A stretch of DNA of 64,000 nucleotides from assembly GCA_035510735.1 (NCBI GenBank), contig DATKGN010000004.1:7436-71435 (forward strand). Direction: 5' to 3'. Each line of letters starts with the position of its first letter. Position 1 is the stretch's first letter. Shown one piece after another: positions 22,453 to 56,910 of the stretch. The stretch comes from Patescibacteria group bacterium (GTDB lineage: Bacteria; Patescibacteriota; Microgenomatia; UBA10105; UBA927). The notes under the pieces are model-generated. The model did no database searches. It saw only the letters and a program-made list of their open reading frames with translations, and was not told the origin of the DNA. A program made the position numbers and the translations under genes.

Positions 22453-23817
22453 ATGGACACGGAAAAACTTTGGAAATCAGTGTTAGCAGAACTTGAGCTA
22501 TCTGTCTCAAAAGCGACCTATCAAACTCATTTTGCCCATAGCGCGCTCGTTTCACTCGTAGACAATATCGCAACAATCGGTTTTGCAAACCCGCTCATGC
22601 GAACCCTTGTTGAAACCAGGTATTATTCACTCGTCAAAAGCATCCTTGATCACCATACGCATAATAATATTAGCCTTGTCTTTGCCGTTACGCCGAAAAG
22701 GGAAACGCTCACCCGCAAAGATGCGGGCCCGCTATTCACCCAAACGCTGGAGGACCAGGGGAGCGACGCTCCGATGCTCGCGAGGAGGCTCCACATCAGG
22801 CCAGACGCAACGTTTGAAAACTTTGCCGTATCGACAACCAACCAAATGGCGTATGCGGCGGCAACCGCTGTTGCTAAAACTCCGGGGACCGCATACAATC
22901 CTCTGTTCATCTACGGGGGGGTTGGCGTCGGAAAAACTCACCTCATGCACGCGGTTGCTAACGCCCTTTTGGCGAGAAAGCCCAACACGCGCGTTGTGTA
23001 TTGCATGGGCGAAGAGTTTCTGAACGAAATTATTGAAGCGATTCAAACAAAAACGGCACGCCAGTTTAAGCAAAAATACCGCTCTGCGCAACTTCTCCTG
23101 GTTGACGACGTACAGTTTATCGCAGGAAAACAGACGGCGCAGGAAGAATTTTTTCATACATTTAACGCGGTGCACCGTGAGGGAGGACAAATTATTCTCA
23201 TCTCGGACCGACCGCCAGCCGAAATATCAAAACTCGAAGATCGTCTGAGGAGCCGGTTTGAAGGAGGGCTGACCGTTGATATCGCCGCCCCAGACTTTGA
23301 GCTCCGGGTGGCAATTATTAATATTAAATCTGCAGCCATGGGACTATTGGTTCCCTCTGACGCAGCACAGCTCATCGCCGCAAACCTTCTTGATACGCGC
23401 GCAATTGAAGGCTTTTTGCGGCGCCTGACTACGGAAATCGCTGCGCGCGGAGGATCGGTAACGCAAGAGCTTGTCTCATCACTTTTAAGCATTAAGTCCG
23501 GCCCAAAAAATATAGAAGCCCAAAAACGGCGGGTGCCGCCGCAGGAGCTTTTGGATGTGGTGGCGACATATTTTGGAATAAAACCGACCGCAATTAAGGG
23601 TCCAAAACGCGACCGCCCCCTAGCGAGACCGCGACAGGTTTTTATGTATCTATGTAGGACCGAGCTTGGATTAACGCTTAACGACATTGGCGGCGCGCTT
23701 GGTGGGCGCGACCACACAACCATCATGCACGGCGTTGAGACCATAACGCGCGAGTTGTCCACAAACGAACGATTGAGAGAGGCGGTGGCGGGGATAAAAC
23801 TGAAGGTTTGGGCATAA
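22453..23817 (+). CDS. dnaA: Chromosomal replication initiator protein DnaA
   Basis: The N-terminus is MDTEKLWKSVLAELELSVSKATYQTHF. AAA+ Walker A is YNPLFIYGGVGVGKTHLMHAV, Walker B LLLVDDVQFIAGK, sensor region ILISDRPP, and a C-terminal HTH domain (DHTTIMHGVE). Confidence 0.97.
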   Translation: MDTEKLWKSVLAELELSVSKATYQTHFAHSALVSLVDNIATIGFANPLMRTLVETRYYSLVKSILDHHTHNNISLVFAVTPKRETLTRKDAGPLFTQTLEDQGSDAPMLARRLHIRPDATFENFAVSTTNQMAYAAATAVAKTPGTAYNPLFIYGGVGVGKTHLMHAVANALLARKPNTRVVYCMGEEFLNEIIEAIQTKTARQFKQKYRSAQLLLVDDVQFIAGKQTAQEEFFHTFNAVHREGGQIILISDRPPAEISKLEDRLRSRFEGGLTVDIAAPDFELRVAIINIKSAAMGLLVPSDAAQLIAANLLDTRAIEGFLRRLTTEIAARGGSVTQELVSSLLSIKSGPKNIEAQKRRVPPQELLDVVATYFGIKPTAIKGPKRDRPLARPRQVFMYLCRTELGLTLNDIGGALGGRDHTTIMHGVETITRELSTNERLREAVAGIKLKVWA

Positions 23818-24013: not shown

Positions 24014-25120
24014 ATGACCATTAGCGTACTTCAGGAAAATTTATTACGGGCGCTTGCAAGAACGGGAAGAGTGGTCCCCCTTAAACCCCAGCTCCCGATT
24101 ATTCAAAATATCTTACTTTCAACGGAGGAGGGGCGGCTGAAACTGACAGCCACGAACCTCGAGACAACAGAAACCGTATTGGTCGGGGCGAAGGTAGAAA
24201 AAAACGGAGGAATCTGCGTCTCATCCCGGCTTCTTGGTGAATTTGTCTCCTCACTCCCACAAGAAACGGTTCACCTGTCTCTTAAGGATGGAGCGCTGCT
24301 CGTTCAGTGTGGTGGGTTTCGGGCTTCAATCCCCGGAGTGGCGGCCGAGGAGTTTCCAAGACTTGCAGTAGTTACAAAAGAAAAAGGGGAGGCGATTGAA
24401 AAAGAAAACTTTATAAGGGCCGTTGAGCGGGTCCTTTTCTCGGCCGCAACCGATGAAGGGAGGCCACTTCTGACGGGCGTACGAATCGCGGGGGCGGGAG
24501 ACGACACCACCATCGTCGCGACAGACGGATACAGACTCTCCCTCAATAGAATGAGTCTTAAGACAAAAAAAGAATTAACCCTCCTTATCCCCGCGCGGGC
24601 GCTCGGAGAAGTTTTGAAGGTGGGAGTTGAAGAGAAGAGCGTGAAAGACATCTATATAACTCCGCCCCTCGACGGACAGGTTTCGTTCTTCATCGGGGAC
24701 ACAGAGATTAGAACCAGACTTATTGACGGCGAATATCCAAACATTGAGAAAACGATTCCGACGAAACATAACACCCGCGTGCTCCTTGACCGAAACGGGC
24801 TTGAAAAAGCCGTAAAGGCCGCGTCAATCTTTGCCCGGGACAACGCAAACATCGTGCGGTTTCATGTTGAGAATCAAACGGTTACGATATCGGCAAACAC
24901 CCCGCAGGTCGGGGAGGACCAAATAGATATTGAAGCCAAGGTTGACGGGGAGGGAGGAGACATGGCGTTTAACAGCAGGTTTCTTCTTGAATTCTTAGCC
25001 AATTTTCACGAAGAGGAGCTTTTGTTTGAAATGACGGGGTCACTCAATCCCGGAGTCTTCCGGCCCGTCAAAGACGATTCATACCTTCATATAATTATGC
25101 CCGTGCGGGTACAAAACTGA
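24014..25120 (+). CDS. dnaN: DNA polymerase III beta sliding clamp DnaN
   Basis: MTISVLQENLLRALARTGRVVPLKPQLPIIQNILL...LKLTATNLETTE, with three-domain length (368 aa). Confidence 0.95.
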   Translation: MTISVLQENLLRALARTGRVVPLKPQLPIIQNILLSTEEGRLKLTATNLETTETVLVGAKVEKNGGICVSSRLLGEFVSSLPQETVHLSLKDGALLVQCGGFRASIPGVAAEEFPRLAVVTKEKGEAIEKENFIRAVERVLFSAATDEGRPLLTGVRIAGAGDDTTIVATDGYRLSLNRMSLKTKKELTLLIPARALGEVLKVGVEEKSVKDIYITPPLDGQVSFFIGDTEIRTRLIDGEYPNIEKTIPTKHNTRVLLDRNGLEKAVKAASIFARDNANIVRFHVENQTVTISANTPQVGEDQIDIEAKVDGEGGDMAFNSRFLLEFLANFHEEELLFEMTGSLNPGVFRPVKDDSYLHIIMPVRVQN

Positions 25121-43738: not shown

Positions 43739-44083
43739 TTATTGTCCCGGGCCGTATATAGTCGGTGACAGGATGAATGTTGCGCTTCCAAATACGATTT
43801 GGCCGACGAGTGCGGCAAGCGCAAACGATCCGATGACGATAATAATTCCAAGGAGCGAGTACCAAATGCGGTCAAGAGCAGCAGATAGAGCCTTAGAATC
43901 ACCCGCAGCACTCATGTATTGGAATCCGGCGATGATGAAGTTAATAAACGCGTAGATGCCGGCGATCACGAAAACAAGGCGCAAAATATTCGTAAAAAAT
44001 AAAATAAGCCCACCATTCGCGCCCGTGAGGCTTTGATATGGTCCGGGAAGCGGATTTGTGACATGACCGACAATTTGATCCAT
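43739..44083 (-). CDS. VirB2-like pilin-family protein (copy 5)
   Basis: IAGIYAFINFIIAGFQYMSAAGDSKALSAALDRIWYSLLGIIIVIGSFALAALV. Confidence 0.6.
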   Translation of the reverse strand: MDQIVGHVTNPLPGPYQSLTGANGGLILFFTNILRLVFVIAGIYAFINFIIAGFQYMSAAGDSKALSAALDRIWYSLLGIIIVIGSFALAALVGQIVFGSATFILSPTIYGPGQ

Positions 44084-44086
44084 AGG

Positions 44087-44398
44087 TTATTTCGGCAATA
44101 GAATAAGTCCTGTTAATTTTTCAACAATTTGTATAATCCAGAATGATCCGACGATGATGATAAGCCCTATGACAGCACCCGTGATTGCTTTTTTACCTTC
44201 CTCCAGCTTCTTCGTGTCACCGGATCCTCCTGCCATTATCATACCAAATCCACCGAAGACCAACAAAGCAAACATAATAACTCCGGCGATGACGAATGCG
44301 TTTTTTGCAACAACCGTCACAAGACTCCCGATATCGGTGAAATGGGTAATGGAGGGGAATGAGCTCTGGAGGTCGACTTCCGCATAAACCTGCTGCAT
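44087..44398 (-). CDS. VirB2-like pilin-family protein (copy 6)
   Basis: AGVIMFALLVFGGFGMIMAGGSGDTKKLEEGKKAITGAVIGLIIIVGSFWIIQIV. Confidence 0.6.
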   Translation of the reverse strand: MQQVYAEVDLQSSFPSITHFTDIGSLVTVVAKNAFVIAGVIMFALLVFGGFGMIMAGGSGDTKKLEEGKKAITGAVIGLIIIVGSFWIIQIVEKLTGLILLPK

Positions 44399-44477
44399 AG
44401 AATTAAGTGTAGTTGCTTTCCGTTTGCTTTGTCAACAACGTCCAAATTGTGGTATAGTGCATGAGTCAGACTCACTT

Positions 44478-45029
44478 ATGACAGATCAGCGGGACGAACG
44501 TGATCTTGTTGCAAAAATTCTGGCGCGGGATCGGCGGGCGTTGTCTTTTTTTTACCGCCACTATACCCCGCGGCTTTCGGCGCTTATCCGGCAAAAAATT
44601 GACAATCAAGGTGACGCCGAAGAGGTTCTCCAGGATACTCTGTTTGCATTTTTGGAGGCTATCCGTGATTTTCAGGGAAATAGCCAGCTTTCGACATTTC
44701 TCTATGCGATCGGGAATCATAAAATCATCGATTATTACAGGCGAAGAAAGTTGCGACAGGTTGTTTTTTCCAGAACGCCCAACCTTGAGGCACTTATCTC
44801 ACCAATGCTCAATCCTGAGGAGGAGCTTGATACGACCATCATGAAAGAAAAAATTCACCGCGTGCTTGCGAGGATCATGCCTCGGTATCGGCAACTCATC
44901 GTTTCCAAATACGAGGAGGATTTATCGGTTGCTGAGATTGCAAAAAAGTTTGCATTATCACTAAAAGGCGCTGAATCACAGTTGTTCCGTGCGAGAAAAG
45001 CATTTGTAGCGTTATTTTTATCGATATAG
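44478..45029 (+). CDS. ECF-type RNA polymerase sigma factor (sigma-70 family, group 4)
   Basis: Region 2 is EEVLQDTLFAFLEAIRDFQGNSQLSTFLYAIGNHKIIDYYRR. Region 4 HTH is LSVAEIAKKFALSLKGAESQLFRARKAF. The ORF starts at 44424. The start was placed at ATG 44478. A TTGTCA-18-TATAGT promoter-like pair lies at about 44431-44461. Confidence 0.85.
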   Translation: MTDQRDERDLVAKILARDRRALSFFYRHYTPRLSALIRQKIDNQGDAEEVLQDTLFAFLEAIRDFQGNSQLSTFLYAIGNHKIIDYYRRRKLRQVVFSRTPNLEALISPMLNPEEELDTTIMKEKIHRVLARIMPRYRQLIVSKYEEDLSVAEIAKKFALSLKGAESQLFRARKAFVALFLSI

Positions 45030-45446: not shown

Positions 45447-46079
45447 GTGGCCCTGTTTCTTATGGTAAATGATATCTTCGTGGCCGGATATAGCTTCGCC
45501 AAGCACGTTATCGGCGTTATTCTCCGGCCGTATGAGACATATCGGAAGATTGTGAGCGACGGAAAGCCATGGGAATTAGGATACATTGCCCTGTGTGCTA
45601 TCTGTTATTTTGCGACTGCGGCACTGGTGAAAACGTCATTGTTCCGTCCGTTTTTGTTGACCCGGCAATTTTTTGCACTATTCTCAGGCGCGGCAGCAAC
45701 CTACATCATTGCCGTCGGTTTATTTTGGACTGTCGGGAAATTATTCGGCGCACGCGGAACGCTTCGCGGGCTTGGTCTTTCCTGGGGGTACACACTGCTT
45801 CCAACAATCATCTGGTTTTGGGTTACCTCACTTTTATATGTTGCTGTGCCGCCACCCCGGACAACTGCGCCAATGGGTATTGCGTTCAGTGTTTTATATT
45901 TACTGTTTTCGGCGACATTGTTGTTTTGGAAAGTAACGCTTGCGTATTTGTCGCTCCGGTTTGCCTTACGTCTTGATCTTTTAAAAATACTCGCAACAAG
46001 CGCAATCGTACTTCCCATTCTTGCTTTATATAGTGTCGGAATGTATTGGTTGGGATTATTCCGCGTCCCGTTTGTGTAA
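45447..46079 (+). CDS. Polytopic membrane protein, possibly Yip1-domain family
   Basis: Five or six TM helices. The N-terminal VILRPYETYRKI resembles the Yip1 N-terminal pattern. Low confidence. Confidence 0.4.
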   Translation: MALFLMVNDIFVAGYSFAKHVIGVILRPYETYRKIVSDGKPWELGYIALCAICYFATAALVKTSLFRPFLLTRQFFALFSGAAATYIIAVGLFWTVGKLFGARGTLRGLGLSWGYTLLPTIIWFWVTSLLYVAVPPPRTTAPMGIAFSVLYLLFSATLLFWKVTLAYLSLRFALRLDLLKILATSAIVLPILALYSVGMYWLGLFRVPFV

Positions 46080-46090
46080 GTCATTACTGT

Positions 46091-47275
46091 ATGAATATAC
46101 GCATGCTAAAATCAGCAAAAGAGAGAAGAACAGCGTTGGAGAAATTATTGCATGTCGAGTTATCATCGATCGGATCATTTTCTCTGGATGAACAAACGGC
46201 GTCAACGAGAAACTGTGAAAATATGATCGGGGCGGCTCAGATTCCCATGGGAGTTGCGGGACCACTCCTCATTAAAGCTCAAATTTCAAACCCAAATGTT
46301 CAGAAGGAAAAAGAATATTACATACCTTTGGCAACAACTGAAGGAGCGCTCGTTGCGTCTATTAACCGTGGGTGTAAGGCGATCACCCAGAGTGGCGGGG
46401 CCGTTGTGGATAGTCATCGGATCGGAGCGACGCGCGGGCCGGTTTTCCGTGTAAAAAATCTTGCTGAAAACCGGACGCTTCGGACGTTTTTGGATACGCG
46501 GTTTGATGAGCTTAAAGAAGTCGCAGCGCAAACCTCCCATCACTTAGCTCTTACGTCGTTTACGTCAACCGGCATCGGCAGATATCGCTATATACGGTTT
46601 GTTTTTGATACGCAGGATGCCATGGGACTTAACATGGTGACGATCGCAACGGAAGCGGTCGCTTCTTATATACGGGAACAAACGGGAATTGAATGTCTGG
46701 CGCTTTCCGGCAATTACTGCGTTGATAAAAAACCTTCCTGGCTTAATATTTTGGGAAAACGGGGGATAAAAGTCTGGGCAGAAGTTGTGCTGACAAAAAC
46801 AGTGCTTCGGGAGACGCTTAAAACCACAGCACGACAAGTGTACGATGTGTGGCTGGCGAAGTGTATGTTGGGGAGCGTCATGAGCGGGTCTATGGCCTTT
46901 AATGCGCAGTTTGCAAATGTTGTTGCCGCCCTATTTGCGGCAACCGGTCAGGATATTGCACACGTTGTTGAGGGGAGCTTGGGCGTGACCACTGCCGAGG
47001 TTTTGCCTGGCGGAGCGTTATATATGTGTGTCTATGTTCCTGATCTCATGATTGGCACCGTTGGCGGCGGGACGGGCTTGGGAACCCAACGGGAAGCATT
47101 ATCCATGCTGGGAGTTGCTGGGAGTTCGCCTCAGGGAGACGGTGGCACGAATGCGCGTCACTTTGCAGAAATCGTCGGTGCTGCAGTGTTAGCTGGAGAA
47201 ATATCGCTTTTGGCATCGTTAGAAGAAGGGACACTTGCAAAAGCGCATCAGTCACTTGCGCGGGGGAATCAATGA
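46091..47275 (+). CDS. Hydroxymethylglutaryl-CoA reductase (NAD(P)H)
   Basis: ENMIGAAQIPMGVAGPLLI, IPLATTEGALVASINRGCKAI, DAMGLNMVT and GTVGGGT motifs. The start was placed at ATG 46091 (MNIRMLKS). Confidence 0.9.
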   Translation: MNIRMLKSAKERRTALEKLLHVELSSIGSFSLDEQTASTRNCENMIGAAQIPMGVAGPLLIKAQISNPNVQKEKEYYIPLATTEGALVASINRGCKAITQSGGAVVDSHRIGATRGPVFRVKNLAENRTLRTFLDTRFDELKEVAAQTSHHLALTSFTSTGIGRYRYIRFVFDTQDAMGLNMVTIATEAVASYIREQTGIECLALSGNYCVDKKPSWLNILGKRGIKVWAEVVLTKTVLRETLKTTARQVYDVWLAKCMLGSVMSGSMAFNAQFANVVAALFAATGQDIAHVVEGSLGVTTAEVLPGGALYMCVYVPDLMIGTVGGGTGLGTQREALSMLGVAGSSPQGDGGTNARHFAEIVGAAVLAGEISLLASLEEGTLAKAHQSLARGNQ

Positions 47276-48327
47276 AAAACAAGACGGTCGGCATCATCTC
47301 ATATGGTACATATATCCCGCTTTACCGCGTCAAGCTTTCCGATATCGCCCACGCGTGGCGAAAAAATCCGGGCGAAGTTGTCGGATCACTTGGAATTATA
47401 GAAAAATCAGTTCCGGGTGTTGATGAAGATGCCGTTACGATTGCACTTGAGGCTGCAGTAAGCGCCTTACACTCTGGCAACGAAAAACCAACTGACATTG
47501 AAGCACTTTTTGTCGGGAGCGAGAGTCATCCGTATGCGGTCAATCCGACATCGACGATCGTCGGCGAATTGTTGGGGGTCGGAAACCATTATCTGGCTGC
47601 TGATTTGGAGTTTGCCTGTAAGGCGGCAACCGCCGGCATGCAGGCGATCGCTGGGCTTGCGACATCCGGCCACATCAGGGCGGGATTAGCAATAGGCGCC
47701 GACACTGCTCAAAGTAAGCCGCATGATGCGCTTGAATATACGTCGGCATCGGCAGGCGTTGCGTATCTCATTGGTACTGATGAGCCGGTGGCAGAGCTTC
47801 TGTCATATACGTCATATTCGTCTGATACGCCGGATTTTTGGCGAAGGGACGGCATCCGCTATCCGACGCACGCGGGCCGTTTCACCGGAGAACCCGCATA
47901 CTTTGCTCACGTAATCGGTTCTTCAAATCGGCTCTTTGAACAGGCACATATAAAACCCGGCGATATAACGCACTGCGTTTTTCATATGCCCAATGCGAAG
48001 TTTCCCCGCGATGTTGCGCGGCGTTTGGGATTTAGCCATGAGCAGCTTGCCTCGTCATTGACCGTTGATCTCATCGGCAATCCGTATTCCGCCTCGGCGC
48101 TTTTGGGACTAGCGGCGACGTTAGATGTAGCAAAACCGGGGGACATGATATTTATGGCATCATACGGATCAGGAGCCGGAAGTGATGCATTTTTATGGCA
48201 AGTGGGGAAAGGGATTGTCGATATTCAGAAGCAGCGGAAAAAAAGGGGTGAATTGGTAGATCAACAGGTTGCACATAAAATGAATATTGATTACGTCGGA
48301 TACCTTAAAAATACACATAAAATATAA
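47272..48327 (+). CDS. Archaeal-type hydroxymethylglutaryl-CoA synthase
   Basis: MKNKTVGIISYGTYIPLYRVKLSDIAHAWRKNPGEVVGSLGIIEKSVPGVDEDAVTIALEAA. There is an active-site Cys context (EFACKAATAG). It is about 350 aa, with no eukaryote/bacterial-type insertions. Confidence 0.9.
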   Translation: MKNKTVGIISYGTYIPLYRVKLSDIAHAWRKNPGEVVGSLGIIEKSVPGVDEDAVTIALEAAVSALHSGNEKPTDIEALFVGSESHPYAVNPTSTIVGELLGVGNHYLAADLEFACKAATAGMQAIAGLATSGHIRAGLAIGADTAQSKPHDALEYTSASAGVAYLIGTDEPVAELLSYTSYSSDTPDFWRRDGIRYPTHAGRFTGEPAYFAHVIGSSNRLFEQAHIKPGDITHCVFHMPNAKFPRDVARRLGFSHEQLASSLTVDLIGNPYSASALLGLAATLDVAKPGDMIFMASYGSGAGSDAFLWQVGKGIVDIQKQRKKRGELVDQQVAHKMNIDYVGYLKNTHKI

Positions 48328-48428: not shown

Positions 48429-49583
48429 ATGAAGATTTATATTATAGGTGCCGCTACGACAAAATTTGGTGAATTATGGGGAGTCAGCCCTCGTGCATTG
48501 GCGCGGGAAGCTGTTGACAGTGCCCTTGCCGATGCAAAACTTCAGACCTCTGATGTCGACGCTCTTTTTGTCGGTAATATGCTCTCCGGCATGTTGGGTG
48601 GACAGGAACATATCGGCGCATTTTTTGCCGAGGAACTTGGGCTCTCAGTTCCTGCATTTAAGATTGAGGGCGCTTGTGCATCGGGCGGATTGGCCCTTCA
48701 CAATGCGGTAAATAGCGTATTGTCCGGTCAATATACAACTGTTGTTGTTTTGGGGGTCGAAAAAATGACCGATCATAAACCCGAGGACGTCGCAACAGCG
48801 CTTATGGGGGCGGGTCGGGAAGGCGAGCGACTGGCGGGTGCAACATTTCCCGGGCTTTACGCGCTTCTTGCGCGGGTGCATATGGCGACATTCGGCACAA
48901 CCGAAGAACAACTTGCGGCAGTTGCAGTGAAAAATCATTATCATGCAAGTCTTAATCCTAATGCACAATTTCAAACGCCTATCACCATCGCTCAGGTGAT
49001 GAAAAGCTCGTGTGTTGCGGACCCGTTGAAATTACTCGATTGTTCACCGATTTCCGACGGCGCTGCGGCACTCATCATTACAAGTGATAAGCGGCAAATT
49101 ATTGACAAAAAACCCGTTGAGATTATTGCGTCCGTCACGGCCACTGATTCATTGGGACTTGCGCAGCGGGAGAGCCTACTGGAACTGAAATCGACGAAGA
49201 AAGCAGGGCAAAAAGCATATGCATTAGCCCATATGGCGCCAGAGGACATTGGTGTTGCTGAGGTCCATGATTGCTTTACGATTGCTGAGGTACTCGCAAT
49301 GGAAGATTTAGGATTTTACAAGAAAGGAAAAGCGGCGATTGCCATCGCAAATGGGGAAACAACGCTCGGAAAATCGAAACACCTCGTAGTAAACCCGTCG
49401 GGAGGCCTGAAAGGGTGCGGTCATCCGGTCGGTGCGACGGGAGTGAAGCAGGTGGTCGAGTTGGTTGATCAATTAAAGGGCCGTGCAGGGAGGCGTCAGT
49501 GCGGAAACGCGCGTATCGGGCTTGCACATAACGTCGGCGGTAGCGGAGCAACAGCGACCGTTCATATATTAATGAGAGATTAG
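48429..49583 (+). CDS. Acetyl-CoA C-acetyltransferase (archaeal-type thiolase that pairs with HMGCS/DUF35)
   Basis: MKIYIIGAATTKFGELWGVSPRALAREAVDSALADAKLQTSDVDALFVGN. There is a catalytic Cys (EGACASGGLALHNA) and C-terminal His/Cys blocks (GHPVGATGVKQVVEL). Confidence 0.9.
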   Translation: MKIYIIGAATTKFGELWGVSPRALAREAVDSALADAKLQTSDVDALFVGNMLSGMLGGQEHIGAFFAEELGLSVPAFKIEGACASGGLALHNAVNSVLSGQYTTVVVLGVEKMTDHKPEDVATALMGAGREGERLAGATFPGLYALLARVHMATFGTTEEQLAAVAVKNHYHASLNPNAQFQTPITIAQVMKSSCVADPLKLLDCSPISDGAAALIITSDKRQIIDKKPVEIIASVTATDSLGLAQRESLLELKSTKKAGQKAYALAHMAPEDIGVAEVHDCFTIAEVLAMEDLGFYKKGKAAIAIANGETTLGKSKHLVVNPSGGLKGCGHPVGATGVKQVVELVDQLKGRAGRRQCGNARIGLAHNVGGSGATATVHILMRD

Positions 49584-49652: not shown

Positions 49653-49952
49653 ATGATTAGTCCTGTTAAAGTTTGGCGGAATCAAAAATTTGTCGCGCGC
49701 ATGGTTGCAAGACGCGGCGTCGTTGTTTCTTGGACCGTGATCCGCGTGCCCCCTGCTGACTTTGGGTATCAGGCCCCGTATCCCGTCGTCATTGTGCGGC
49801 TTGATGGTGGCGAGTCAATCGCCGCCCAGATGGTGGATTATGAGGAAAAGCACCTGGCTATCGGTCAAAAGGTCATTTCTGTCGTTCGCCGGACGATCCA
49901 AACGGAGACGGATGACGTTATCCCGTATGGGATAAAAGTCAAGCCAATATAG
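49653..49952 (+). CDS. DUF35 OB-fold/Zn-ribbon-family protein, the scaffold subunit of the thiolase-HMGCS complex
   Basis: 99 aa. RGVVVSWTVIRVPPADFGYQAPYPVVIVRLDGGESIAAQMVD is a DUF35 OB-fold pattern. It sits directly after the thiolase, as in archaea. Confidence 0.75.
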   Translation: MISPVKVWRNQKFVARMVARRGVVVSWTVIRVPPADFGYQAPYPVVIVRLDGGESIAAQMVDYEEKHLAIGQKVISVVRRTIQTETDDVIPYGIKVKPI

Positions 49953-49961
49953 ACGGGGTAT

Positions 49962-50924
49962 ATGAAAAAAATACGCGTATCAGCACCGGGGAAAGTTCAT
50001 CTTATGGGCGAGCACGCCGTTGTGTACGGCAAGCCGGCACTACTCGCGGCAATTGATCTCCGGCTTTTCGTGACGATAGAGGAACTGGAAAAAAATAATT
50101 CTATCAAGGAACAAATTACTATTGTTTCTAGGGAGCCGACCGATCATGCACGATACGCTATAGATTTTCTTCTTAAGGAGTTAAAAATAACGGATTACCC
50201 TCCAATTAAAATTACCATAGATTCTCAAATTCCGGCTGGATTTCATTTGGGTTCATCGGCCGCGGTCGCTGTGGGACTAACGGGTGCAATTATCTATTTT
50301 TTCAAAAAACTCTGGAACCCGATCCGGATTAATGAATTGGCATATGAGATTGAGAAAAAACAACATGGAAATCCATCGGGAGGAGATAATACAGCGGTGA
50401 CGATGGGAGGATTTATATGGTTTCGAAAAGAGCTTGAGTTTTTAAAAAGTATTTGGCAGCTTCCGTTTAAGCCGCACGTGACAACTAATCATTTTTTTCT
50501 GATTAATACGGGAAAGCCGAAAGAAACAACGGGAGAGATGGTTGCGTTTGTAAAAGAAAAGGTATCAAAGAATCCTGCGGAGATGCAAAAACTCCTTGAT
50601 CTCAATGAACAACAGGTGAAACGTGTGACGGTAGCACTCAAAGAAGGCAATGAGTCCGAATTAATTGATGCAATACGAATCGGCGAGAGAACGTTGGAGG
50701 GAATGGGAGTCGTAAGCCGAAAGGTTCAGCCGCTTATGCGGCAAATTGAAGAAGCGGACGGCGCGGTTAAAATTTTAGGTGGCGGGGGAGTAAGTGAGGG
50801 GGTCGGTTTTCTGCTTTGTTATCATCAAAATCTTGCGAAAGTTGAGTCAATCTGCAGGAATTATAGTTTTTCGTTACGTAACATAAAACTTGGTGAAGAA
50901 GGAGTCCGATTGGATGAAAAATAA
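49962..50924 (+). CDS. Mevalonate kinase (GHMP kinase family)
   Basis: SAPGKVHLMGEHAVVYGKPALLAAIDLRLFV, with a GHMP motif PAGFHLGSSAAVAVGLTGAI. Confidence 0.8.
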   Translation: MKKIRVSAPGKVHLMGEHAVVYGKPALLAAIDLRLFVTIEELEKNNSIKEQITIVSREPTDHARYAIDFLLKELKITDYPPIKITIDSQIPAGFHLGSSAAVAVGLTGAIIYFFKKLWNPIRINELAYEIEKKQHGNPSGGDNTAVTMGGFIWFRKELEFLKSIWQLPFKPHVTTNHFFLINTGKPKETTGEMVAFVKEKVSKNPAEMQKLLDLNEQQVKRVTVALKEGNESELIDAIRIGERTLEGMGVVSRKVQPLMRQIEEADGAVKILGGGGVSEGVGFLLCYHQNLAKVESICRNYSFSLRNIKLGEEGVRLDEK

Positions 50925-52401
50925 TCAGTCGATAACGGCAAGCGCCCCCGGGAAATTGCTTCTGATGGGAGATCACGCAGTAGTGTATGGGTATCCCAGT
51001 ATCGTGACTGCGATAAATGAGCGGATGTTTGCGACTGTATCATTAACCGAGGAAAAAACATTCGTATTGAATGCGCCGAACGTAAACGTTACCGGATATA
51101 AAAAATCGTTAAGCGATCTTGGAGCGGGAGACGTATCCGTCGGTGCTCGGTTTGTTGAGGTCGCCGTAAAAAATTTCCACGCGGCACACCCGATGAACTG
51201 CGGGGTAACTATTACTATACGATCCGAGTTTTCTTCACAATACGGATTCGGATCGTCCTCCGCTTCGACGGTGTCGATTCTAAAGGCGCTATCTGAGCTA
51301 TTTGATCGAAAACTAGATAATAGACAACTATTTGATCTCGCATATAAAACAGTGTTGGATATTCAGGGCGTCGGGAGCGGATTTGATGTTGCAGCTGCTA
51401 TCTGGGGAGGAACGCTGTATTTTACGGGCGGCGGGCGCGTGATTGAGCCCATGGAAATCGGCGAAATTCCCTTAATAGTCGGATATACCGGCATCAAAGC
51501 GGACACAAAAACGCTTATCGGTACGGTCGCTAAGTTAAAAGAACAATATCCGGAGAAAGTTGCGCGTATTTTTCAGGCTATTCAAAAGCTTGTCGATGAG
51601 GGGAAAGTGCGTATTGAAGATGGCGATTGGCAGCGCACGGGCACGCTTATGAATTTTAACCAGGATTATCTTCGCGATCTGGGAGTAAGCTCAGAAAAGC
51701 TAGAGTCACTCATCAGTGCAGCAAAAGGAGCGGGTGCGTATGGAGCGAAATTATCCGGTGCCGGAGGCGGGGATTGCATGATCGCCCTTCACCCTGATGG
51801 GGTAAAGGGTAAACTTGTCGTTGAGAAGGCGATCACTGCGGTTGGTGGCACTGTTCTCACAGTAAGTCCAAATGCAGAAGGGGTTCGCGTGGAAACAACG
51901 GATGATCAAAAAGAATTATTTATTGTCGTTGATAAAAACGATGAGATCGTCGGTTATAAAACACGATACGAATGCCATCATGATAAAACGCTCATTCATA
52001 GGACGGTGGGCGCGCTCATTTTTAACGACAAGGGTGAACTCCTGCTCCAAAAACGCAGCATGACCAAGGATATGGAAGCCGGGTTGTGGGGAATTTCCGC
52101 AGCAGGTCACGTGACAAAGGGTCAAACGGACGAAGCGGCCGTACACCGTGAGCTTCAGGAAGAGGTAGGCGTCGATATGCCTCTTACATTTGTTAAAAAA
52201 TTTATTACCTCAAACGAATTTGAAACTGAACGGGCCGCATTATTTCGGGGGTTATGCAATGGCCCGTTTACACCGGACGCCCAGGAGGTTGCCGATCTTA
52301 CGTTTTTCGCCCCGCGCGAAATTGCATTATTTGTGGCGAGTAAAAAATTGATTCTGACCTCTGCAGCCGCTCAAGCACTTAAGGAGGTAGGTGTGTTATG
52401 A
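50914..52401 (+). CDS. GHMP kinase (phosphomevalonate-kinase candidate) fused to a C-terminal IDI-1/Nudix-like domain
   Basis: The N-terminus is SAPGKLLLMGDHAVVYGYPSIVTAINERMF, with a GHMP motif EFSSQYGFGSSSASTVSIL. The C-terminal roughly 170 aa (TLIHRTVGALIFNDKGELLLQKRSMTKDMEAGLWGISAAGHVTKGQTDEAAVHRELQEEVGV) aligns with type-1 isopentenyl-diphosphate isomerase. The catalytic Cys (CGHP/CCSHP) is replaced by Ala (AAGHV). Confidence 0.7.
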   Translation: MKNNQSITASAPGKLLLMGDHAVVYGYPSIVTAINERMFATVSLTEEKTFVLNAPNVNVTGYKKSLSDLGAGDVSVGARFVEVAVKNFHAAHPMNCGVTITIRSEFSSQYGFGSSSASTVSILKALSELFDRKLDNRQLFDLAYKTVLDIQGVGSGFDVAAAIWGGTLYFTGGGRVIEPMEIGEIPLIVGYTGIKADTKTLIGTVAKLKEQYPEKVARIFQAIQKLVDEGKVRIEDGDWQRTGTLMNFNQDYLRDLGVSSEKLESLISAAKGAGAYGAKLSGAGGGDCMIALHPDGVKGKLVVEKAITAVGGTVLTVSPNAEGVRVETTDDQKELFIVVDKNDEIVGYKTRYECHHDKTLIHRTVGALIFNDKGELLLQKRSMTKDMEAGLWGISAAGHVTKGQTDEAAVHRELQEEVGVDMPLTFVKKFITSNEFETERAALFRGLCNGPFTPDAQEVADLTFFAPREIALFVASKKLILTSAAAQALKEVGVL

Positions 52402-53378
52402 AAGCGACCGCTCAAGCACCTTCCAATATCGCATTTATCAAATATTGGGGGAAAAGAGACGATGCGCTTCGTATTCCGTCAAATTCATCAATCTCGATGA
52501 ATTTATCGGGCGCAACAACGACAACGACAGTCGAATTTTCTTCTCATTTTTCCGAGGATTCGGTTGAATTGGTTGGTGACAAGTTTTCCGCCGCAGAAAA
52601 ACAGAAAGTGATTGATCATGTTGACAGAATTCGCAAGAGAGCAAAAAGTACTAACCGGGTGAAGGTGAAAACAAAAAATACGTTTCCCCGCGGCGCAGGG
52701 ATTGCGTCGTCTGCCTCCGGGTTTGCAGCGCTCACAGAAGCGGGTTGTAAAGCCGCAGATTTGAGGCTTTCCCAACAAGAGCTCACTGTCTTAGCGCGCA
52801 TTGGATCCGGTTCCGCGTGTCGGTCTATACCCGACGGATTTGTCAAATGGGAAGCGGGTACTACATCACAAAGCTCATTCGCGTATTCACTATATCCCAA
52901 TACGTACTGGGATCTCCGGGATATTCTTGTGATTGTTGATCAAAAACAAAAATCAGTTTCTACAACTGCCGGCATGGAAGCTGTTGCGACCAGTCCGTTT
53001 TGGCCCTTACGCATTCTGGGAATTGATGCACGATTAACGCGTGTTGAAAATGCGTTACAAATAAAAGATTTTAACATGTTGGGAGAAACTATTGAGGAAG
53101 ATTGTATATCGATGCACGCAGTTGCTATAACGCAAAAGCCGTCACTTTTCTATTGGAGTGAAGCAACAATCGAGTGTATACGCGCTGTGATCCGCTGGCG
53201 GAAAGCAGGATTACCGGTGTTTTTTACCATTGATGCCGGTCCAAACGTCCATTTGATTTGTGAAGGAAGAAATGAAAAGCACGTTACCGATGGATTGAAA
53301 GAGACTTCTCATATACAATCAGTGTTGGTCAATAAACCGAGCGCCGGGGCGCGGATAGTTGATGCACATTTATTTTAA
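52398..53378 (+). CDS. Diphosphomevalonate decarboxylase
   Basis: KATAQAPSNIAFIKYWGKRDDALRIPSNSSISMNLS, with a GHMP-like fold (GAGIASSASGFAALT). Confidence 0.85.
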   Translation: MKATAQAPSNIAFIKYWGKRDDALRIPSNSSISMNLSGATTTTTVEFSSHFSEDSVELVGDKFSAAEKQKVIDHVDRIRKRAKSTNRVKVKTKNTFPRGAGIASSASGFAALTEAGCKAADLRLSQQELTVLARIGSGSACRSIPDGFVKWEAGTTSQSSFAYSLYPNTYWDLRDILVIVDQKQKSVSTTAGMEAVATSPFWPLRILGIDARLTRVENALQIKDFNMLGETIEEDCISMHAVAITQKPSLFYWSEATIECIRAVIRWRKAGLPVFFTIDAGPNVHLICEGRNEKHVTDGLKETSHIQSVLVNKPSAGARIVDAHLF

Positions 53379-53383
53379 AATTT

Positions 53384-54082
53384 ATGAAATCACAACACAT
53401 TCCAAAACACATCGCGATCATCATGGATGGCAACAGACGGTGGGCAAGAGAGCACAATTTGCCGGTTCTTGAGGGGCACAGGCGTGTCGCAAACAGCATA
53501 CTGGAGCCTCTCATTAAACACGCATCGGAGATGGGCATCCAGTACCTTACGTTTTGGGCGTGGTCAACGGAAAATTGGAACCGCGATATTGGTGAAGTGA
53601 AAGGAATTATGAATTTACTTCAGTGGGGGTTCGGACATTTCGGCGAAAAATTGCACAAAAACGGAGTCCGTATTCGGATGATTGGAGATATATCAAAGTT
53701 TGATCATAACATTCAGCGGCAAATAACCGCGCTCATTGAAAAAACAAAAAACAACACCGCAATTACTGCAATATTCGCACTAAATTATGGCGGACGCGAT
53801 GAAATGCTTCGTGCAATTGCAAAATGGCATAAAGATCAAAAAAACGAAACCCGTGAGATTACCTCTAATGAGTTTTCTCAGTATTTAGATACTACGGGCA
53901 TTCCCGATCCAGAGCTTATCGTGCGCACAGGGGGCGAAAAGCGGTTAAGCGGATTTTTGTTGTGGCAGAGTGAATACAGTGAGTTATATTTTGCCGACTG
54001 GCACATGCCGGATTTCACCGTAACCAGATTTGATGAAATTGTCGGCGACTTTGAGCTGCGTCAGAGGAGATTCGGAAAATAG
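53384..54082 (+). CDS. uppS: Undecaprenyl-diphosphate synthase (cis-prenyltransferase)
   Basis: HIAIIMDGNRRWAREHNLP, GH..G, FWAWSTENWNR and LNYGGRDE blocks. Confidence 0.9.
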   Translation: MKSQHIPKHIAIIMDGNRRWAREHNLPVLEGHRRVANSILEPLIKHASEMGIQYLTFWAWSTENWNRDIGEVKGIMNLLQWGFGHFGEKLHKNGVRIRMIGDISKFDHNIQRQITALIEKTKNNTAITAIFALNYGGRDEMLRAIAKWHKDQKNETREITSNEFSQYLDTTGIPDPELIVRTGGEKRLSGFLLWQSEYSELYFADWHMPDFTVTRFDEIVGDFELRQRRFGK

Positions 54083-54084
54083 CA

Positions 54085-54435
54085 CTACCCGAAGATATTT
54101 TTAATCGCATCGACACCGAATATTATCCCCAATGCCTGAACAAGCCAGTATGCCACAAAGATAATTAAGAATCCGAGGAGCGCATTGGTTAGCTGCTGTT
54201 GCCCTTTTTCCAGTTGTTTTGGATCGCCTGCGCTTGTTAAAAAGGTGAATCCACCCGCAAGCAGCATGATGAATAATCCAAATCCGGCAAAGATAAAAAC
54301 GAATGTTATAGCACGGGAAAGTATTGCTCCAAGCGACGGATTTGTCCCCAGTGGTCCACCCTGTAGGGGCCCATTGATTTTCGCGGGGCCATTTGTCCAA
54401 GGAATTGTTAATGATTGGGCGAGTATATGGTTCAT
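54085..54435 (-). CDS. VirB2-like pilin-family protein (copy 7, displaced from the main array)
   Basis: FVFIFAGFGLFIMLLAGGFTFLTSAGDPKQLEKGQQQLTNALLGFLIIFVAYWLVQAL has the same motif as the 42.1-44.4 kb array. Confidence 0.6.
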   Translation of the reverse strand: MNHILAQSLTIPWTNGPAKINGPLQGGPLGTNPSLGAILSRAITFVFIFAGFGLFIMLLAGGFTFLTSAGDPKQLEKGQQQLTNALLGFLIIFVAYWLVQALGIIFGVDAIKNIFG

Positions 54436-54445
54436 AAAGAATATA

Positions 54446-55066
54446 TTATCGAGGACCCATTGTCCCTTGTTGTCCCGTTGCGAATCCAGGAATCCCTATA
54501 ATATTAATTCCGATAAATGATAATAAAAAGACGGAAAAGATAATGAGAATAAGGCCGGTTATCGCGGAGCTGACGAGTTCGCGTCCGGCATTAAGCTGCT
54601 CAGGATTGCCTGCGCTGGTCATAATCTGCAGTCCGCCGAAGAGAATAAGAAGAAACGCTATGCCGCCTGCTAAACCCATACCGAGTTTGATAATCCATCC
54701 AAGGAGATCATTCGGATCAGTCTGAATGCATCCGATTGCGGTCCACGTCTTCTGAGTCGAATCGCCCGTATTTGTCATGCAACCTATGCAGGCAGCATGT
54801 TGAGCATCTGGAACCGAGTCGCAAATATTATACGTTTGTGAAACCCCCGCGGGGCGAGTGCCTGACGGACATTCTGCAGCGGTATCACAACATTGTCCAG
54901 TGAAGTTCACTGGACCATTGCCGATGCATTGAACCTGGGTTTTTGTGCACATTACGGTTTGCGAGAATAGATTTTGTGCTGCTCCATTACATGCGGCCTG
55001 GACTTTCGTAGTCGGGATAAGCCAAAACACCAAAAATAGCGCGACAATAAAGCCAAATATCCGCAT
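54446..55066 (-). CDS. Pilin-family protein with a Cys-rich secreted N-terminal domain (copy 8)
   Basis: It has a signal peptide (MRIFGFIVALFLVFWLIPTTKVQA) and a domain with about 11 Cys residues (CNGAAQ...CTKTQVQCIGNGPVNFTGQCCDTAAECPSG...CIGCMTNTG). The C-terminal pilin core is LAGGIAFLLILFGGLQIMTSAGNPEQLNAGRELVSSAITGLILIIFSVFLL. The start was placed at an internal Met. Confidence 0.5.
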   Translation of the reverse strand: MRIFGFIVALFLVFWLIPTTKVQAACNGAAQNLFSQTVMCTKTQVQCIGNGPVNFTGQCCDTAAECPSGTRPAGVSQTYNICDSVPDAQHAACIGCMTNTGDSTQKTWTAIGCIQTDPNDLLGWIIKLGMGLAGGIAFLLILFGGLQIMTSAGNPEQLNAGRELVSSAITGLILIIFSVFLLSFIGINIIGIPGFATGQQGTMGPR

Positions 55067-55125
55067 AAATTCAGTGTAACAAATACGATCGGGAAAATAA
55101 AGAATGGTACAATAGTAACGCTTCA

Positions 55126-56910
55126 ATGAAAAAGACCGTCTTACTATTTTCAATAGGTTTATTCATGCTCGTTGTCGCGGTGCGTGTACATGCGTGTGAT
55201 TCAAGTGTGACCTGTGAAAATGTGACGCAAGCAAACCTTGAATCATGTAATCCGAATGAAGTCACCATGATTAGCGCAAAATGCAGCGAGGCATTCTCTA
55301 ATATTGAAAAAGCCGCACAGCCGCACCGCGCGGAACTTGATAAAATGAACCAGGCAATCGCAGCTTTCCAGGCTCGCATTCAACAAATCGAGGCCGATGT
55401 AGCACAAAAGACAATTGCAATAGCCCTAGGGGAGAAGCAGTTGGAAGGATTATATACGGTTGCAAGCGCTCGGATTCGGGAGTTCTATATTCGCTCGTTT
55501 ACCAATAATGTGATTGCACTTTTCTTTTCATCGACAAATATTGGTTCGGCATTTCGGACAATCGGGTATCAGCAGGCTGCAGTCAATGAAGATAAAAAAG
55601 TGATTACACAGACTGCGCTTGTCGTCCAGGACTTGGAGACCAAAAAAAAAGAACTAGTTTCTGAACAGGCGTCGCTTGCCCAGCTTAAGGCAGATACGGA
55701 TAAGCGTGCAGAGACAATACGGAAATTATTAGCACAGGTAGCAGCGTATGAAGGGCAACTTCAGAGTGCGATGGCCGCAATATCAGCCCGTCAACAGGAG
55801 TTTTTGGCACAAAAACTTGCGGGACTTGGAATCCCCCTTTTTGCCATAAGCGGCGGAGGATGTTCGAGCGATTTAACCAATGGTAAAGATCCGGGGTTTG
55901 GCGGCGCTTTTGGGTTTTTTACTTTCGGCGTGCCGAATCGCGTGGGGTTAAATCAATATGGAGCATTAGGGAGGGCTAAAGTAGGACAAAATGCTGATAC
56001 TATTCTCCATGCATATTACAATTTTGACGGGTATCAGAGCGTTGACGCGAACATTACGATAAAAGTAAACGACAGTAACAGCGTGAATCAAGGGAACATT
56101 ATTTGGAGCGGAAAATTAAATGATTATGTGAAACGGATCTACGAGGTTCCTGGTGATTGGCCTTCAGAATCGTTAAAAGCACAGGTGATAGCCATACGTT
56201 CGTACGTACTGGCGACGACAAATAACGGCAATATGTCTATTTGTGCGAATCAGTATTGTCAGGTGTTTCAGTCCGGCGAAAAGGGAGGCGCCTGGAATCA
56301 GGCTGTAGACGATACGGGAACACAGGTTATGGTGCAAGGGGGAAATCCGATTAAAGCATTTTTTTCTTCGACGCATGGGGGATATGTCTATAGCACGGGT
56401 GATTTACAGGGGTGGTCAGCCACGAGCTACACTAAAAGAGCAGTGGATACGACAAGCGGAAGTGTGTCGGGATTTTCGGATTTGCGAAGTAACGCGTATG
56501 ATCGTGACAGTCCATGGTTTTATTGTGATTGGGGCGCGCGCAGTCAAAACGGTGGCACTGCGTGGTTAAAACCTGAAGAAGTCGCCGATATCGCCAATGT
56601 GATTCTTTTGGCCCATCAAGACGGCTCATCACAGCAACACCTCACTCAACCCGATAAACCGAATCCCGACGGTGTCGATACATGGGATGCGGCGACCGTT
56701 CGATCGAAACTCGGTGACCGTGCATATAATTCAGTATCCAATGTATCAATGAGTGCGGATTTTGGCACCGGCAGGGTAACATCCGTCTCCGTATCGGGAG
56801 ATGGGAAATCCGACACATTTGACGGAGGTGACTTTAAAACCTATTTTAACCTCCGGGCGCCCGCAAATATTCAAATCGTCGGACCGCTCTATAACGTTGA
56901 GAAAAAGTAA
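55126..56910 (+). CDS. SpoIID/LytB-domain protein with an N-terminal signal peptide and a coiled-coil region
   Basis: A coiled coil of about 200 aa (QARIQQIEADVAQKTIAIALGEKQLEGL...) is followed by SpoIID/LytB blocks: ESLKAQVIAIRSYVLA, CANQYCQVFQSG and FFSSTHGGYVYSTGD. Confidence 0.75.
   Translation: MKKTVLLFSIGLFMLVVAVRVHACDSSVTCENVTQANLESCNPNEVTMISAKCSEAFSNIEKAAQPHRAELDKMNQAIAAFQARIQQIEADVAQKTIAIALGEKQLEGLYTVASARIREFYIRSFTNNVIALFFSSTNIGSAFRTIGYQQAAVNEDKKVITQTALVVQDLETKKKELVSEQASLAQLKADTDKRAETIRKLLAQVAAYEGQLQSAMAAISARQQEFLAQKLAGLGIPLFAISGGGCSSDLTNGKDPGFGGAFGFFTFGVPNRVGLNQYGALGRAKVGQNADTILHAYYNFDGYQSVDANITIKVNDSNSVNQGNIIWSGKLNDYVKRIYEVPGDWPSESLKAQVIAIRSYVLATTNNGNMSICANQYCQVFQSGEKGGAWNQAVDDTGTQVMVQGGNPIKAFFSSTHGGYVYSTGDLQGWSATSYTKRAVDTTSGSVSGFSDLRSNAYDRDSPWFYCDWGARSQNGGTAWLKPEEVADIANVILLAHQDGSSQQHLTQPDKPNPDGVDTWDAATVRSKLGDRAYNSVSNVSMSADFGTGRVTSVSVSGDGKSDTFDGGDFKTYFNLRAPANIQIVGPLYNVEKK

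Follow-up and report, generated by a model that had tools for sequence, protein, structure and literature searches.

Type-1 isopentenyl diphosphate (IPP) isomerases (IDI-1), such as Escherichia coli Idi and human IDI1 and IDI2, combine a Nudix-derived fold with five metal ligands, a diphosphate clamp formed by Arg/Lys21, Arg51 and Lys55, and Glu87 (positions are given in E. coli IDI numbering). Here we describe a protein domain that shares all of these features and is encoded in a mevalonate operon, but in which the catalytic Cys67 is replaced by Ala, Tyr104 and Trp161 are missing and Arg83 is replaced by Glu, and which scores below the IDI cut-offs and falls into a separate clade. It forms the C-terminal half of a kinase-Nudix fusion encoded in 64,000 nucleotides of DNA from a Patescibacteria group bacterium (GenBank assembly GCA_035510735.1, contig DATKGN010000004.1, positions 7,436 to 71,435 of the forward strand), the whole of which is referred to below as the window. 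Judged by sequence, this half belongs to a distinct and conserved IDI-1 paralogue family of candidate phyla radiation (CPR) bacteria and some archaea, which we named CHHD-Nudix after its CHHD motif. We tentatively favor the view that CHHD-Nudix is a Nudix pyrophosphohydrolase with an isoprenoid diphosphate as its substrate, and not the isomerase of the pathway.

Several described Nudix proteins resemble CHHD-Nudix in part. E. coli YfcD (PDB 2FKB), an IDI-like protein with no assigned substrate, shares with it a canonical Nudix box (REAEEELGI in YfcD) and a small residue at the Cys67 position but, unlike CHHD-Nudix, is without counterparts of His25, His69, Glu114 and Glu116 in the alignment. 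To our knowledge, YfcD has no isoprenoid gene context. Rose and Arabidopsis NUDX1 convert an isoprenoid diphosphate to the monophosphate and phosphate, and the Methanosarcina mazei Nudix hydrolase MM_2582 is said, in work by Ishibashi and co-workers from 2022, to prefer IPP and dimethylallyl diphosphate (DMAPP), which it converts to the monophosphates. The family model NF041653 is possibly based on MM_2582, a link that is our assumption. The plant and human prenyl-diphosphate Nudix hydrolases are MutT-like, not IDI-like, and are not known to have a His3Glu2 site; unlike CHHD-Nudix, they are also not tied to mevalonate enzymes by an operon or a fusion. On the human side, NUDT15 and NUDT18 carry out prenyl-diphosphate hydrolysis on the Nudix scaffold (bioRxiv 10.1101/2023.11.29.569174).

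The CPR mevalonate operon has been surveyed by Hoshino and Gaucher (2018; PMC6107057). According to that survey, it holds an archaeal-type thiolase, HMG-CoA synthase, a class I reductase, two GHMP kinases and a decarboxylase, in synteny with "IDI-I" and a cis-prenyltransferase, and isopentenyl phosphate kinase (IPK) is also syntenic with "IDI-I". The operon in the window has the same content, and both the operon and the "IDI-I" call are thus already in the literature at the level of that survey. The passages of it that we searched treat all BLAST-level IDI-1 homologues as IDI-I and note only that CPR IDI-I is not monophyletic; neither fusions nor a division into genuine IDI-1 and Cys-less paralogue were found mentioned there. 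Such a split would explain the published non-monophyly. Our literature search found no description of CPR "IDI-I" as genuine IDI-1 plus a Cys-less paralogue with a Nudix box, of the co-occurrence and fusion of the two, or of a fusion between the paralogue and mevalonate kinase. In databases the protein is named either "mevalonate kinase" or "isopentenyl-diphosphate delta-isomerase". Genome-based reconstructions likewise call it "mevalonate kinase" or the IPP isomerase of the CPR pathway, and are used in debates on the ancestry of isoprenoid biosynthesis.

Architecture of the Kinase-Nudix Fusion

The initial annotation had described the open reading frame (ORF) at 50914-52401 as a GHMP kinase fused to an IDI-like Nudix domain. 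Pfam, together with matches of the C-terminal 170 amino acids to the type-1 IDI model PRK03759 (E = 2.3e-24) and to PDB 3hyq (E = 8.5e-12), confirmed this architecture. One of the two stretches it had quoted as E. coli IDI, TLLHRAFSCYLFDEQGRLLVQRR, is not from the E. coli enzyme; the other is correct. The features of the fusion are as follows.

50914..52401, + strand: kinase-Nudix fusion ORF, 495 amino acids (ORF list, start context, Pfam and NCBIfam domains)
50914..51894, + strand: mevalonate kinase half, archaeal type, residues 1-327 (TIGR00549, PDB matches, motifs)
50947-50991, + strand: kinase motif I, PGKLLLMGDHAVVYG, residues 12-26 (direct reading)
51244-51267, + strand: kinase motif II, GFGSSSAS, residues 111-118 (direct reading)
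51373-51411, + strand: kinase catalytic Asp loop, GSGFD, residues 154-166 (direct reading)
51748-51777, + strand: kinase motif III, KLSGAGGGDC, residues 279-288 (direct reading)
51895..52398, + strand: IDI-like Nudix domain, residues 328-495 (Pfam NUDIX, PRK03759, AF2/Foldseek)
51973..51999, + strand: CHHDKTLIH, with Cys354 followed by His355 and His362, the counterparts of the IDI metal ligands His25 and His32 (direct reading, alignments)
52102..52104, + strand: Ala397, aligned with the catalytic Cys67 of E. coli IDI (HMMER and MAFFT alignments)
52105..52173, + strand: Nudix box GHVTKGQTDEAAVHRELQEEVGV, of the form Gx5Qx7REUxEExGU (direct reading)
52222..52230, + strand: Glu437-x-Glu439, the counterparts of the IDI metal/catalytic residues Glu114 and Glu116 (direct reading, alignments)

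An ATG at 50914, preceded by GGAG at a distance of 8 nt, opens the ORF, and the last base of its stop codon is 52401. At its two ends the ORF shares 11 nt with the upstream GHMP kinase gene and 4 nt with the decarboxylase gene, and it is thus translationally coupled inside the operon. Pfam placed GHMP_kinases_N at residues 81-166, GHMP_kinases_C at 235-305 and NUDIX at 362-470. An identical protein is present in a public collection (P0001), and the AlphaFold2 (AF2) model of the full-length fusion reached a pLDDT of 94.9 and a pTM of 0.84.

The N-terminal half passed the mevalonate kinase model TIGR00549 with 209.6 bits against a cut-off of 163, and its top PDB matches were the mevalonate kinases 8teb, 4hac and 6mde, aligned end to end at 146-151 bits. 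The GHMP motifs and the catalytic Asp loop showed no variation in 106 relatives. By its score, its three motifs and its catalytic Asp this half is a GHMP mevalonate kinase, with a putative substrate specificity. The archaeal-type enzymes 8teb, 4hac and 6mde share the kinase half, but only the fusion adds a C-terminal Nudix domain, and it does so without a linker: the Nudix half opens with TTDDQKE, the exact N-terminus of its standalone homologues.

Classification and Fold of the Nudix Domain

With the Pfam NUDIX model (PF00293) the domain scored 63.5 bits against a gathering score of 21.1, and it missed both IDI equivalog cut-offs (PRK03759, 86.1 bits against 127; TIGR02150, 60.3 bits against 105.8). 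It also stayed below the cut-off of the YfcD model NF011922 (62 bits against 152) and that of NF041653, the model for Methanosarcina-type Nudix hydrolases (44.8 bits against 300). All 99 family members tested matched NF041653 at 45-80 bits, the archaeal relatives at 52-80 bits, with a best E-value of 3.5e-22; these scores lie so far below 300 bits that CHHD-Nudix is not an orthologue of that family. When the family profile was compared with solved structures, YfcD ranked first with 98 bits, followed by human IDI2 with 87, and E. coli IDI reached 58. The AF2 model of the domain (pLDDT 95.7) was placed by Foldseek in the IDI/YfcD/DR0079 branch of the Nudix fold. Its best superposition was on E. 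coli YfcD (TM-score 0.82/0.87, root-mean-square deviation 1.7 Å), and E. coli IDI superposed with a TM-score of ~0.78 at 2.8 Å (Foldseek E-values to IDI of 3e-13 to 1e-10).

Active-Site Residues

Residues were counted in 118 fused and 109 standalone Microgenomates relatives (227 in total), and a broader check covered 70 more diverse representatives of the family. Ala397 aligns with Cys67 (AAGHV against VCGHP) in HMMER alignments to the E. coli and Salmonella enzymes, in MAFFT and in profile alignments, and the Cys-to-Ala replacement proposed in the initial annotation therefore stands. In this column the fused relatives read A89/G20/S8/T1 and the standalone ones S44/G35/A17/T12/C1, i.e., one Cys in 227, and none was found in the 70 diverse representatives. 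A Cys shifted by misalignment was ruled out, as the three kinds of alignment all give Ala and position 66, which is Cys in 23 of the 118 fused relatives, is also Ala in the window protein.

Within the Nudix box, RELQEEVGV at residues 412-420 matches the motif REUXEEXGU with all three glutamates. Glu413, Glu416 and Glu417 (E83, E86 and E87) are present in 118/118 fused and 109/109 standalone proteins, so that all 227 carry Glu, and none a basic residue, at position 83, where IDI-1 has its diphosphate-contacting Arg. Known IDIs carry RRxxYE or RRxxAE at this site of the Nudix box (Srouji et al., 2017, PMC5389931). The window protein has Gln in place of the first Glu of the box (Gx5E), and 75 of the 109 standalone relatives have Glu there. 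The columns of Tyr104 and Trp161, in IDI-1 the acid helper and the carbocation stabilizer, are variable (V/T/S/I and A/G/C/W/F, respectively), in regions that align less reliably than the surroundings of Cys67 and the Nudix box.

The metal ligands of IDI are kept as His355, His362, His399, Glu437 and Glu439 (His25, His32, His69, Glu114 and Glu116), each in at least 95% of relatives, and the family also retains the diphosphate clamp, with Arg51, Lys55 and, at position 21, Arg where IDI has Lys. By its residue pattern the Nudix box is a canonical hydrolase motif, and the domain unites a substrate and metal site of the IDI type with a catalytic site of the MutT type. Cys354 (position 24) showed no variation in the 227 close relatives; it is Ala or Val in 32 of the 70 diverse representatives, 26 of which have no Cys at position 24, 66 or 67. 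As a relocated catalytic thiol, Cys354 was on these counts ruled out as a family-wide solution.

Distribution of the Family and Origin of the Fusion

All 120 best whole-protein relatives are kinase-Nudix fusions, from Patescibacteria, Gottesmanbacteria and Microgenomates. A search with the domain only returned standalone proteins of 163-175 amino acids in Roizman-, Gottesman-, Davies-, Pace- and Wirthbacteria, together with relatives in Bathyarchaeia and Aenigmatarchaeota, and an exhaustive profile search gave 379 clusters (50% identity level) at E <= 1e-30. Outside the Gottesmanbacteria-like lineage most copies are standalone. In most Microgenomates lineages the genes for the second kinase and the Nudix protein are separate and lie 5-10 nt apart, which suggests that the fusion arose by read-through of neighbors; the earlier description of the fusion as unusual needs qualifying on both counts. 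An adjacent archaeal-type mevalonate kinase gene would then have been joined to CHHD-Nudix by loss of its stop codon, yielding a single polypeptide with two pathway-linked activities. The neighbor-joining tree leaves undecided whether this happened once or repeatedly.

A domain fused to mevalonate kinase in the window and to IDI-1 elsewhere, in a two-domain arrangement that the full-length model predicts to be fixed (pTM 0.84), could be a catalytically silent sensor or partner that binds IPP or DMAPP and regulates mevalonate kinase or IDI-1. Mevalonate kinases of the Methanosarcina type are not known to be feedback-inhibited; the kinase half resembles them, and an added sensor could make sense if it, too, is not feedback-inhibited. 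A silent domain is, however, difficult to reconcile with both metal sites (the three Nudix glutamates and Glu114/Glu116) being invariant across hundreds of sequences, as is typical of catalysis, or with the predominance of standalone copies, which are also found in clusters without a mevalonate kinase (e.g., L013-L018). We consider a purely regulatory role quite unlikely, and the inactive regulatory domain that was among the three readings first put forward has lost ground accordingly.

Genuine IDI-1 in the Same Gene Clusters

In four loci (L021, L014, L013 and L035), ORFs adjoining CHHD-Nudix pass the IDI equivalog cut-offs with about 133-237 bits. A search seeded with one such ORF returned 120 CPR proteins of the genuine IDI-1 family, which passes the NCBIfam IDI cut-offs and in which position 67 is Cys in 113 and Ser in 7, position 83 is Arg in 119 and Arg or Lys in all 120, and Tyr104 and Trp161 are each present in 120. 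The neighbor-joining tree resolved the Cys-less family as a clade of its own, separate from genuine CPR IDI-1. Both are encoded in one cluster in at least seven loci (L013, L014, L021, L035, L042/L043, L056 and L096), the IDI-1 genes being of differing subtypes and in differing positions. The initial statement that the operon contains no separate IDI thus holds for the window, as judged by tblastn, and fails for related operons.

The contig SRR29054603_56438, common to the match lists of CHHD-Nudix and of genuine IDI-1, is the key locus; its genuine IDI-1 is P0261. L042/L043 is syntenic with the window and encodes the same kinase-Nudix fusion (P0092, 53% identity) plus a genuine IDI-1, in the order trans-isoprenyl diphosphate synthase (trans-IPPS), sigma factor, small ORF, Yip1, IDI-1, reductase and, further along, fusion, decarboxylase, undecaprenyl diphosphate (UPP) synthase, pilins and SpoIID. 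Its IDI-1 gene lies between the Yip1 and reductase genes, which abut in the window. In mevalonate operons of Beckwithbacteria and another CPR lineage, single proteins even join genuine IDI-1 and CHHD-Nudix, in either order; their IDI-1 domains score 132-170 bits and their CHHD-Nudix domains 97-105 bits, against an IDI cut-off of 127. That two ancient paralogues stay next to each other in very small genomes, and have fused repeatedly there, points to two different, linked functions.

The proteins joining IDI-1 and CHHD-Nudix include those at L126 10001-11068 and L127 10001-11047 and P0361-P0367; in P0364 and P0367 the IDI-1-type domain carries Ser at the Cys67 position. Tandem proteins with two Cys-less domains and three-domain proteins were also seen. 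Ser replaces Cys67 in some otherwise canonical IDI-1 proteins (L013 7839-8390; 7/120 members of the CPR IDI-1 family), which keep Arg83, Tyr104 and Trp161 and score above the IDI cut-off. Near some mevalonate operons there is a third IDI-like paralogue (L022 3773-4294, L028 11506-12015 and L032 7324-7842, all on the minus strand), with GATH for VCGH, an IDI-type RRC..E box and an ENEHCC motif; its score on the IDI model, 71.7 bits, falls short of the cut-off.

The coexistence with genuine IDI-1 bears directly on whether CHHD-Nudix could itself be the IPP isomerase of the pathway, working independently of a thiol. Glu116 and the metal would in that case protonate the double bond and another base would take the C2 proton, the candidates being a Nudix-box Glu, the diphosphate, water or, in close relatives, Cys354, which stands beside His25 and is constant in all 227. 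Loss of Cys67, Tyr104 and Trp161 together with the charge reversal at Arg83 speaks against this chemistry, although all IDI metal ligands and Arg/Lys21, Arg51 and Lys55 are kept and 7 of 120 genuine IDI-1 proteins tolerate Ser at position 67; moreover, the 26 of 70 diverse members without Cys at 24, 66 or 67 leave no family-wide thiol. CHHD-Nudix holds a conserved place in mevalonate operons in which IDI is the sole missing enzyme, most loci have no other IDI within 10 kb, and in IPK clusters it takes the place of genuine IDI-1 (L016 and L018 as against L045 and L070). The BLASTp cut-off behind the count of IDI-I as universal in CPR, in the only published survey found, would also take in CHHD-Nudix (PMC6107057). 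However, genuine IDI-1 in the same cluster (seven loci) and in the same polypeptide would be hard to explain by one shared function in reduced genomes. We regard a thiol-independent isomerase as a possibility to be taken seriously but on balance unlikely, and the reading as an IDI with another proton donor is weakened.

Gene Neighborhoods in Relatives

Neighborhoods were read within 10 kb in 37 species-representative loci carrying CHHD-Nudix.

8/37 loci: CHHD-Nudix fused to the kinase
at least 21/37 loci: mevalonate genes within 10 kb
20/37 loci: UPP synthase within 10 kb
5/37 loci: amino-acid-kinase-family gene (the "IPK" of the literature) within 10 kb

The layout IPK-(ORF)-Nudix-UPP synthase is found in four of the five IPK loci, and in one locus CHHD-Nudix lies between IspE-IspG and UPP synthase, i.e., in the context of the methylerythritol phosphate (MEP) pathway. 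In five clusters the CHHD-Nudix gene abuts or overlaps the UPP synthase gene.

The archaeal and some CPR copies (L017, L023, L036 and L039-L041) have no isoprenoid neighbors, and the nearest solved structures include YfcD and DR0079, as might be expected if CHHD-Nudix were a generic house-cleaning nucleotide hydrolase, like DR0079 (CDP/CTP) or YfcD, whose isoprenoid link is incidental. The Microgenomates copies, in contrast, lie inside isoprenoid clusters of three pathway types and are fused to two isoprenoid enzymes, and the IDI-specific diphosphate and metal residues, most of which YfcD lacks, are kept. A house-cleaning function consequently seems very unlikely.

The proximity to UPP synthase admits a more specific proposal, namely that CHHD-Nudix is a cytoplasmic prenyl-diphosphate phosphatase that converts undecaprenyl (or shorter) diphosphate to the monophosphate carrier. 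The chain would exit where Trp161 and Tyr104, which close the pocket, have been lost, with the head group held in the IDI clamp and cleaved by the Nudix glutamates. The proposal draws on this being the sole candidate step that is unassigned in every type of cluster (mevalonate, IPK-only, MEP and those with genuine IDI-1). If true, it would supply the long-unassigned cytoplasmic dephosphorylation of de novo polyprenyl diphosphate, but we think it improbable in this specific form.

Two further features of the related clusters were observed. In the mevalonate operon of L127 (11040-12991) a single GHMP kinase lies between a double Nudix protein and the decarboxylase, and the usual second kinase, the candidate phosphomevalonate kinase, is missing from the cluster. 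ORFs of 240-290 amino acids stand beside IPK or CHHD-Nudix at L014 9253-9999, L016 9114-9995, L031 2-730 and L013 8387-9187, in clusters without other mevalonate genes. Those of L014, L016 and L013 gave no Pfam match, L031 being outside the scan, and all except the L013 ORF weakly resemble the upstream GHMP kinase of the window (59-100 bits).

Proposed Hydrolysis of an Isoprenoid Diphosphate

Hydrolysis of an isoprenoid diphosphate is suggested by the restored and invariant REUxEE motif, the loss of three isomerase residues and the co-occurrence and fusion with IDI-1 in relatives, and also by the failure to reach either IDI cut-off, by YfcD as the nearest solved relative and by the isoprenoid gene context. 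In our model, the isoprenoid diphosphate would sit in the pocket inherited from IDI, which retains the Arg/Lys diphosphate clamp and the His3Glu2 metal site, and the REUxEE glutamates would cleave this substrate in an Mg2+-dependent manner to the monophosphate and phosphate. Architecture, residue pattern, conservation, synteny and the association with genuine IDI-1 are observations; hydrolase chemistry, substrate class and physiological role are inferred. The substrate could be IPP, DMAPP or a longer prenyl diphosphate with a DMAPP-like head group, for whose chain the loss of the bulky Trp161 and of Tyr104 could open the pocket. Among the three readings first proposed, the phosphohydrolase is thus the best supported.

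A number of observations weigh against this interpretation. The five IDI-specific metal ligands are conserved, though an ordinary Nudix hydrolase needs none of them. Glu86-Glu87 also occur in genuine CPR IDI-1, so that the "restored" motif differs at position 83 only, and Ser at Cys67 in some members of the genuine family suggests that the Cys may be less indispensable than in textbook IDI. No other IDI is encoded within 10 kb in 33 of the 37 loci, the window included, though all other pathway enzymes are clustered, and the survey reports IDI-I as universal and IDI-II (IDI-2) as sparse in CPR (PMC6107057). If some genomes are truly without another IDI, they would need CHHD-Nudix to make DMAPP, and to do so thiol-free. 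Finally, it is not obvious why a reduced genome would keep a hydrolase that destroys the product of the pathway, and beside IPK such an enzyme would create a futile cycle. Weighing these points, we hold that CHHD-Nudix may well be an isoprenoid diphosphate hydrolase, at a confidence that stops somewhat short of even.

The distinction matters for how CPR genomes are read. If CHHD-Nudix is not an isomerase, many of them hold either an unrecognized IDI elsewhere or a real gap at DMAPP formation, and there would be a conserved extra enzymatic step in CPR isoprenoid or cell-wall-carrier metabolism. If it is an isomerase without Cys, Tyr and Trp, it would amount to an IDI-1 with a new mechanism and to a living intermediate between Nudix hydrolases and IDI.

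The Mevalonate Operon and Its Surroundings in the Window

Apart from the fusion, the operon and its upstream region contain the following genes.

44424-45029, + strand: ECF-type sigma factor (kept upstream of the operon in relatives)
45447-46079, + strand: Yip1 membrane protein (kept upstream of the operon in relatives)
46046-47275, + strand: HMG-CoA reductase, upper mevalonate pathway (Pfam)
47272-48327, + strand: HMG-CoA synthase, upper mevalonate pathway (Pfam)
48429-49583, + strand: archaeal-type thiolase, upper mevalonate pathway (Pfam)
49653-49952, + strand: DUF35/OB protein, upper mevalonate pathway (Pfam)
49962..50924, + strand: divergent mevalonate-kinase-like GHMP kinase (TIGR00549, PDB, synteny)
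52398..53378, + strand: diphosphomevalonate decarboxylase (TIGR01240, 267.9 bits against a cut-off of 171; Pfam MVD-like_N and MDD_C)
53384..54082, + strand: cis-prenyltransferase, undecaprenyl diphosphate synthase (Pfam Prenyltransf, 1.4e-70)

The order in the window is therefore reductase, synthase, thiolase, DUF35, first GHMP kinase, fusion, decarboxylase and UPP synthase. Related operons throughout Microgenomates show this gene order as well. The upstream GHMP kinase passes TIGR00549 with 176 bits, aligns with PDB mevalonate kinases at only ~73 bits and is placed 5' of the kinase gene in related operons too. It is a candidate phosphomevalonate kinase, the roles of both kinases being assigned by similarity. 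No second IDI-1, IPK or trans-IPPS was found in the 64-kb window by tblastn with CPR IDI-1, IPK and trans-IPPS queries or by Pfam on 38 ORFs, and none of the window ORFs of IDI-2 size gave an IDI-2-type Pfam match, no explicit IDI-2 query having been run. The initial annotation had likened a phosphatase activity to the alternative archaeal mevalonate routes. This comparison is not supported for the window, which has a classical decarboxylase, two GHMP kinases and no IPK; the archaeal route through phosphomevalonate decarboxylase and IPK was ruled out there on the model scores and the lack of an IPK.

The ECF-type sigma factor gene lies directly upstream of the HMG-CoA reductase gene in the window and in L001, L003, L042, L126 and L127, with a small ORF in between, and its product may serve specifically to regulate the operon. 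In the window and in L042 the Yip1-domain membrane protein is encoded between the sigma factor and the reductase. Small membrane proteins encoded on the opposite strand border the operon in the window (43739-44398 and 54085-55153, both minus strand) and in the same five related loci. This arrangement recurs across Microgenomates, sometimes between the decarboxylase and UPP synthase genes; in a scan of the related loci's ORFs, those at the membrane-protein positions matched PF18895 (T4SS_pilin).

Further upstream, dnaA (22453-23817) and dnaN (24014-25120) lie at the minimum of the cumulative GC skew, and the window probably spans the chromosomal replication origin. Positions 1-20100 are occupied by a polysaccharide/glycan block that encodes a polyprenyl-phosphate sugar transferase, a DegT aminotransferase, several GT2 and GT4 glycosyltransferases, two Wzy-like proteins, an ABC-2 exporter, a sulfotransferase and a radical SAM/SPASM enzyme, and the products of this block would use up the polyprenyl phosphate carrier that is formed downstream of the mevalonate operon.

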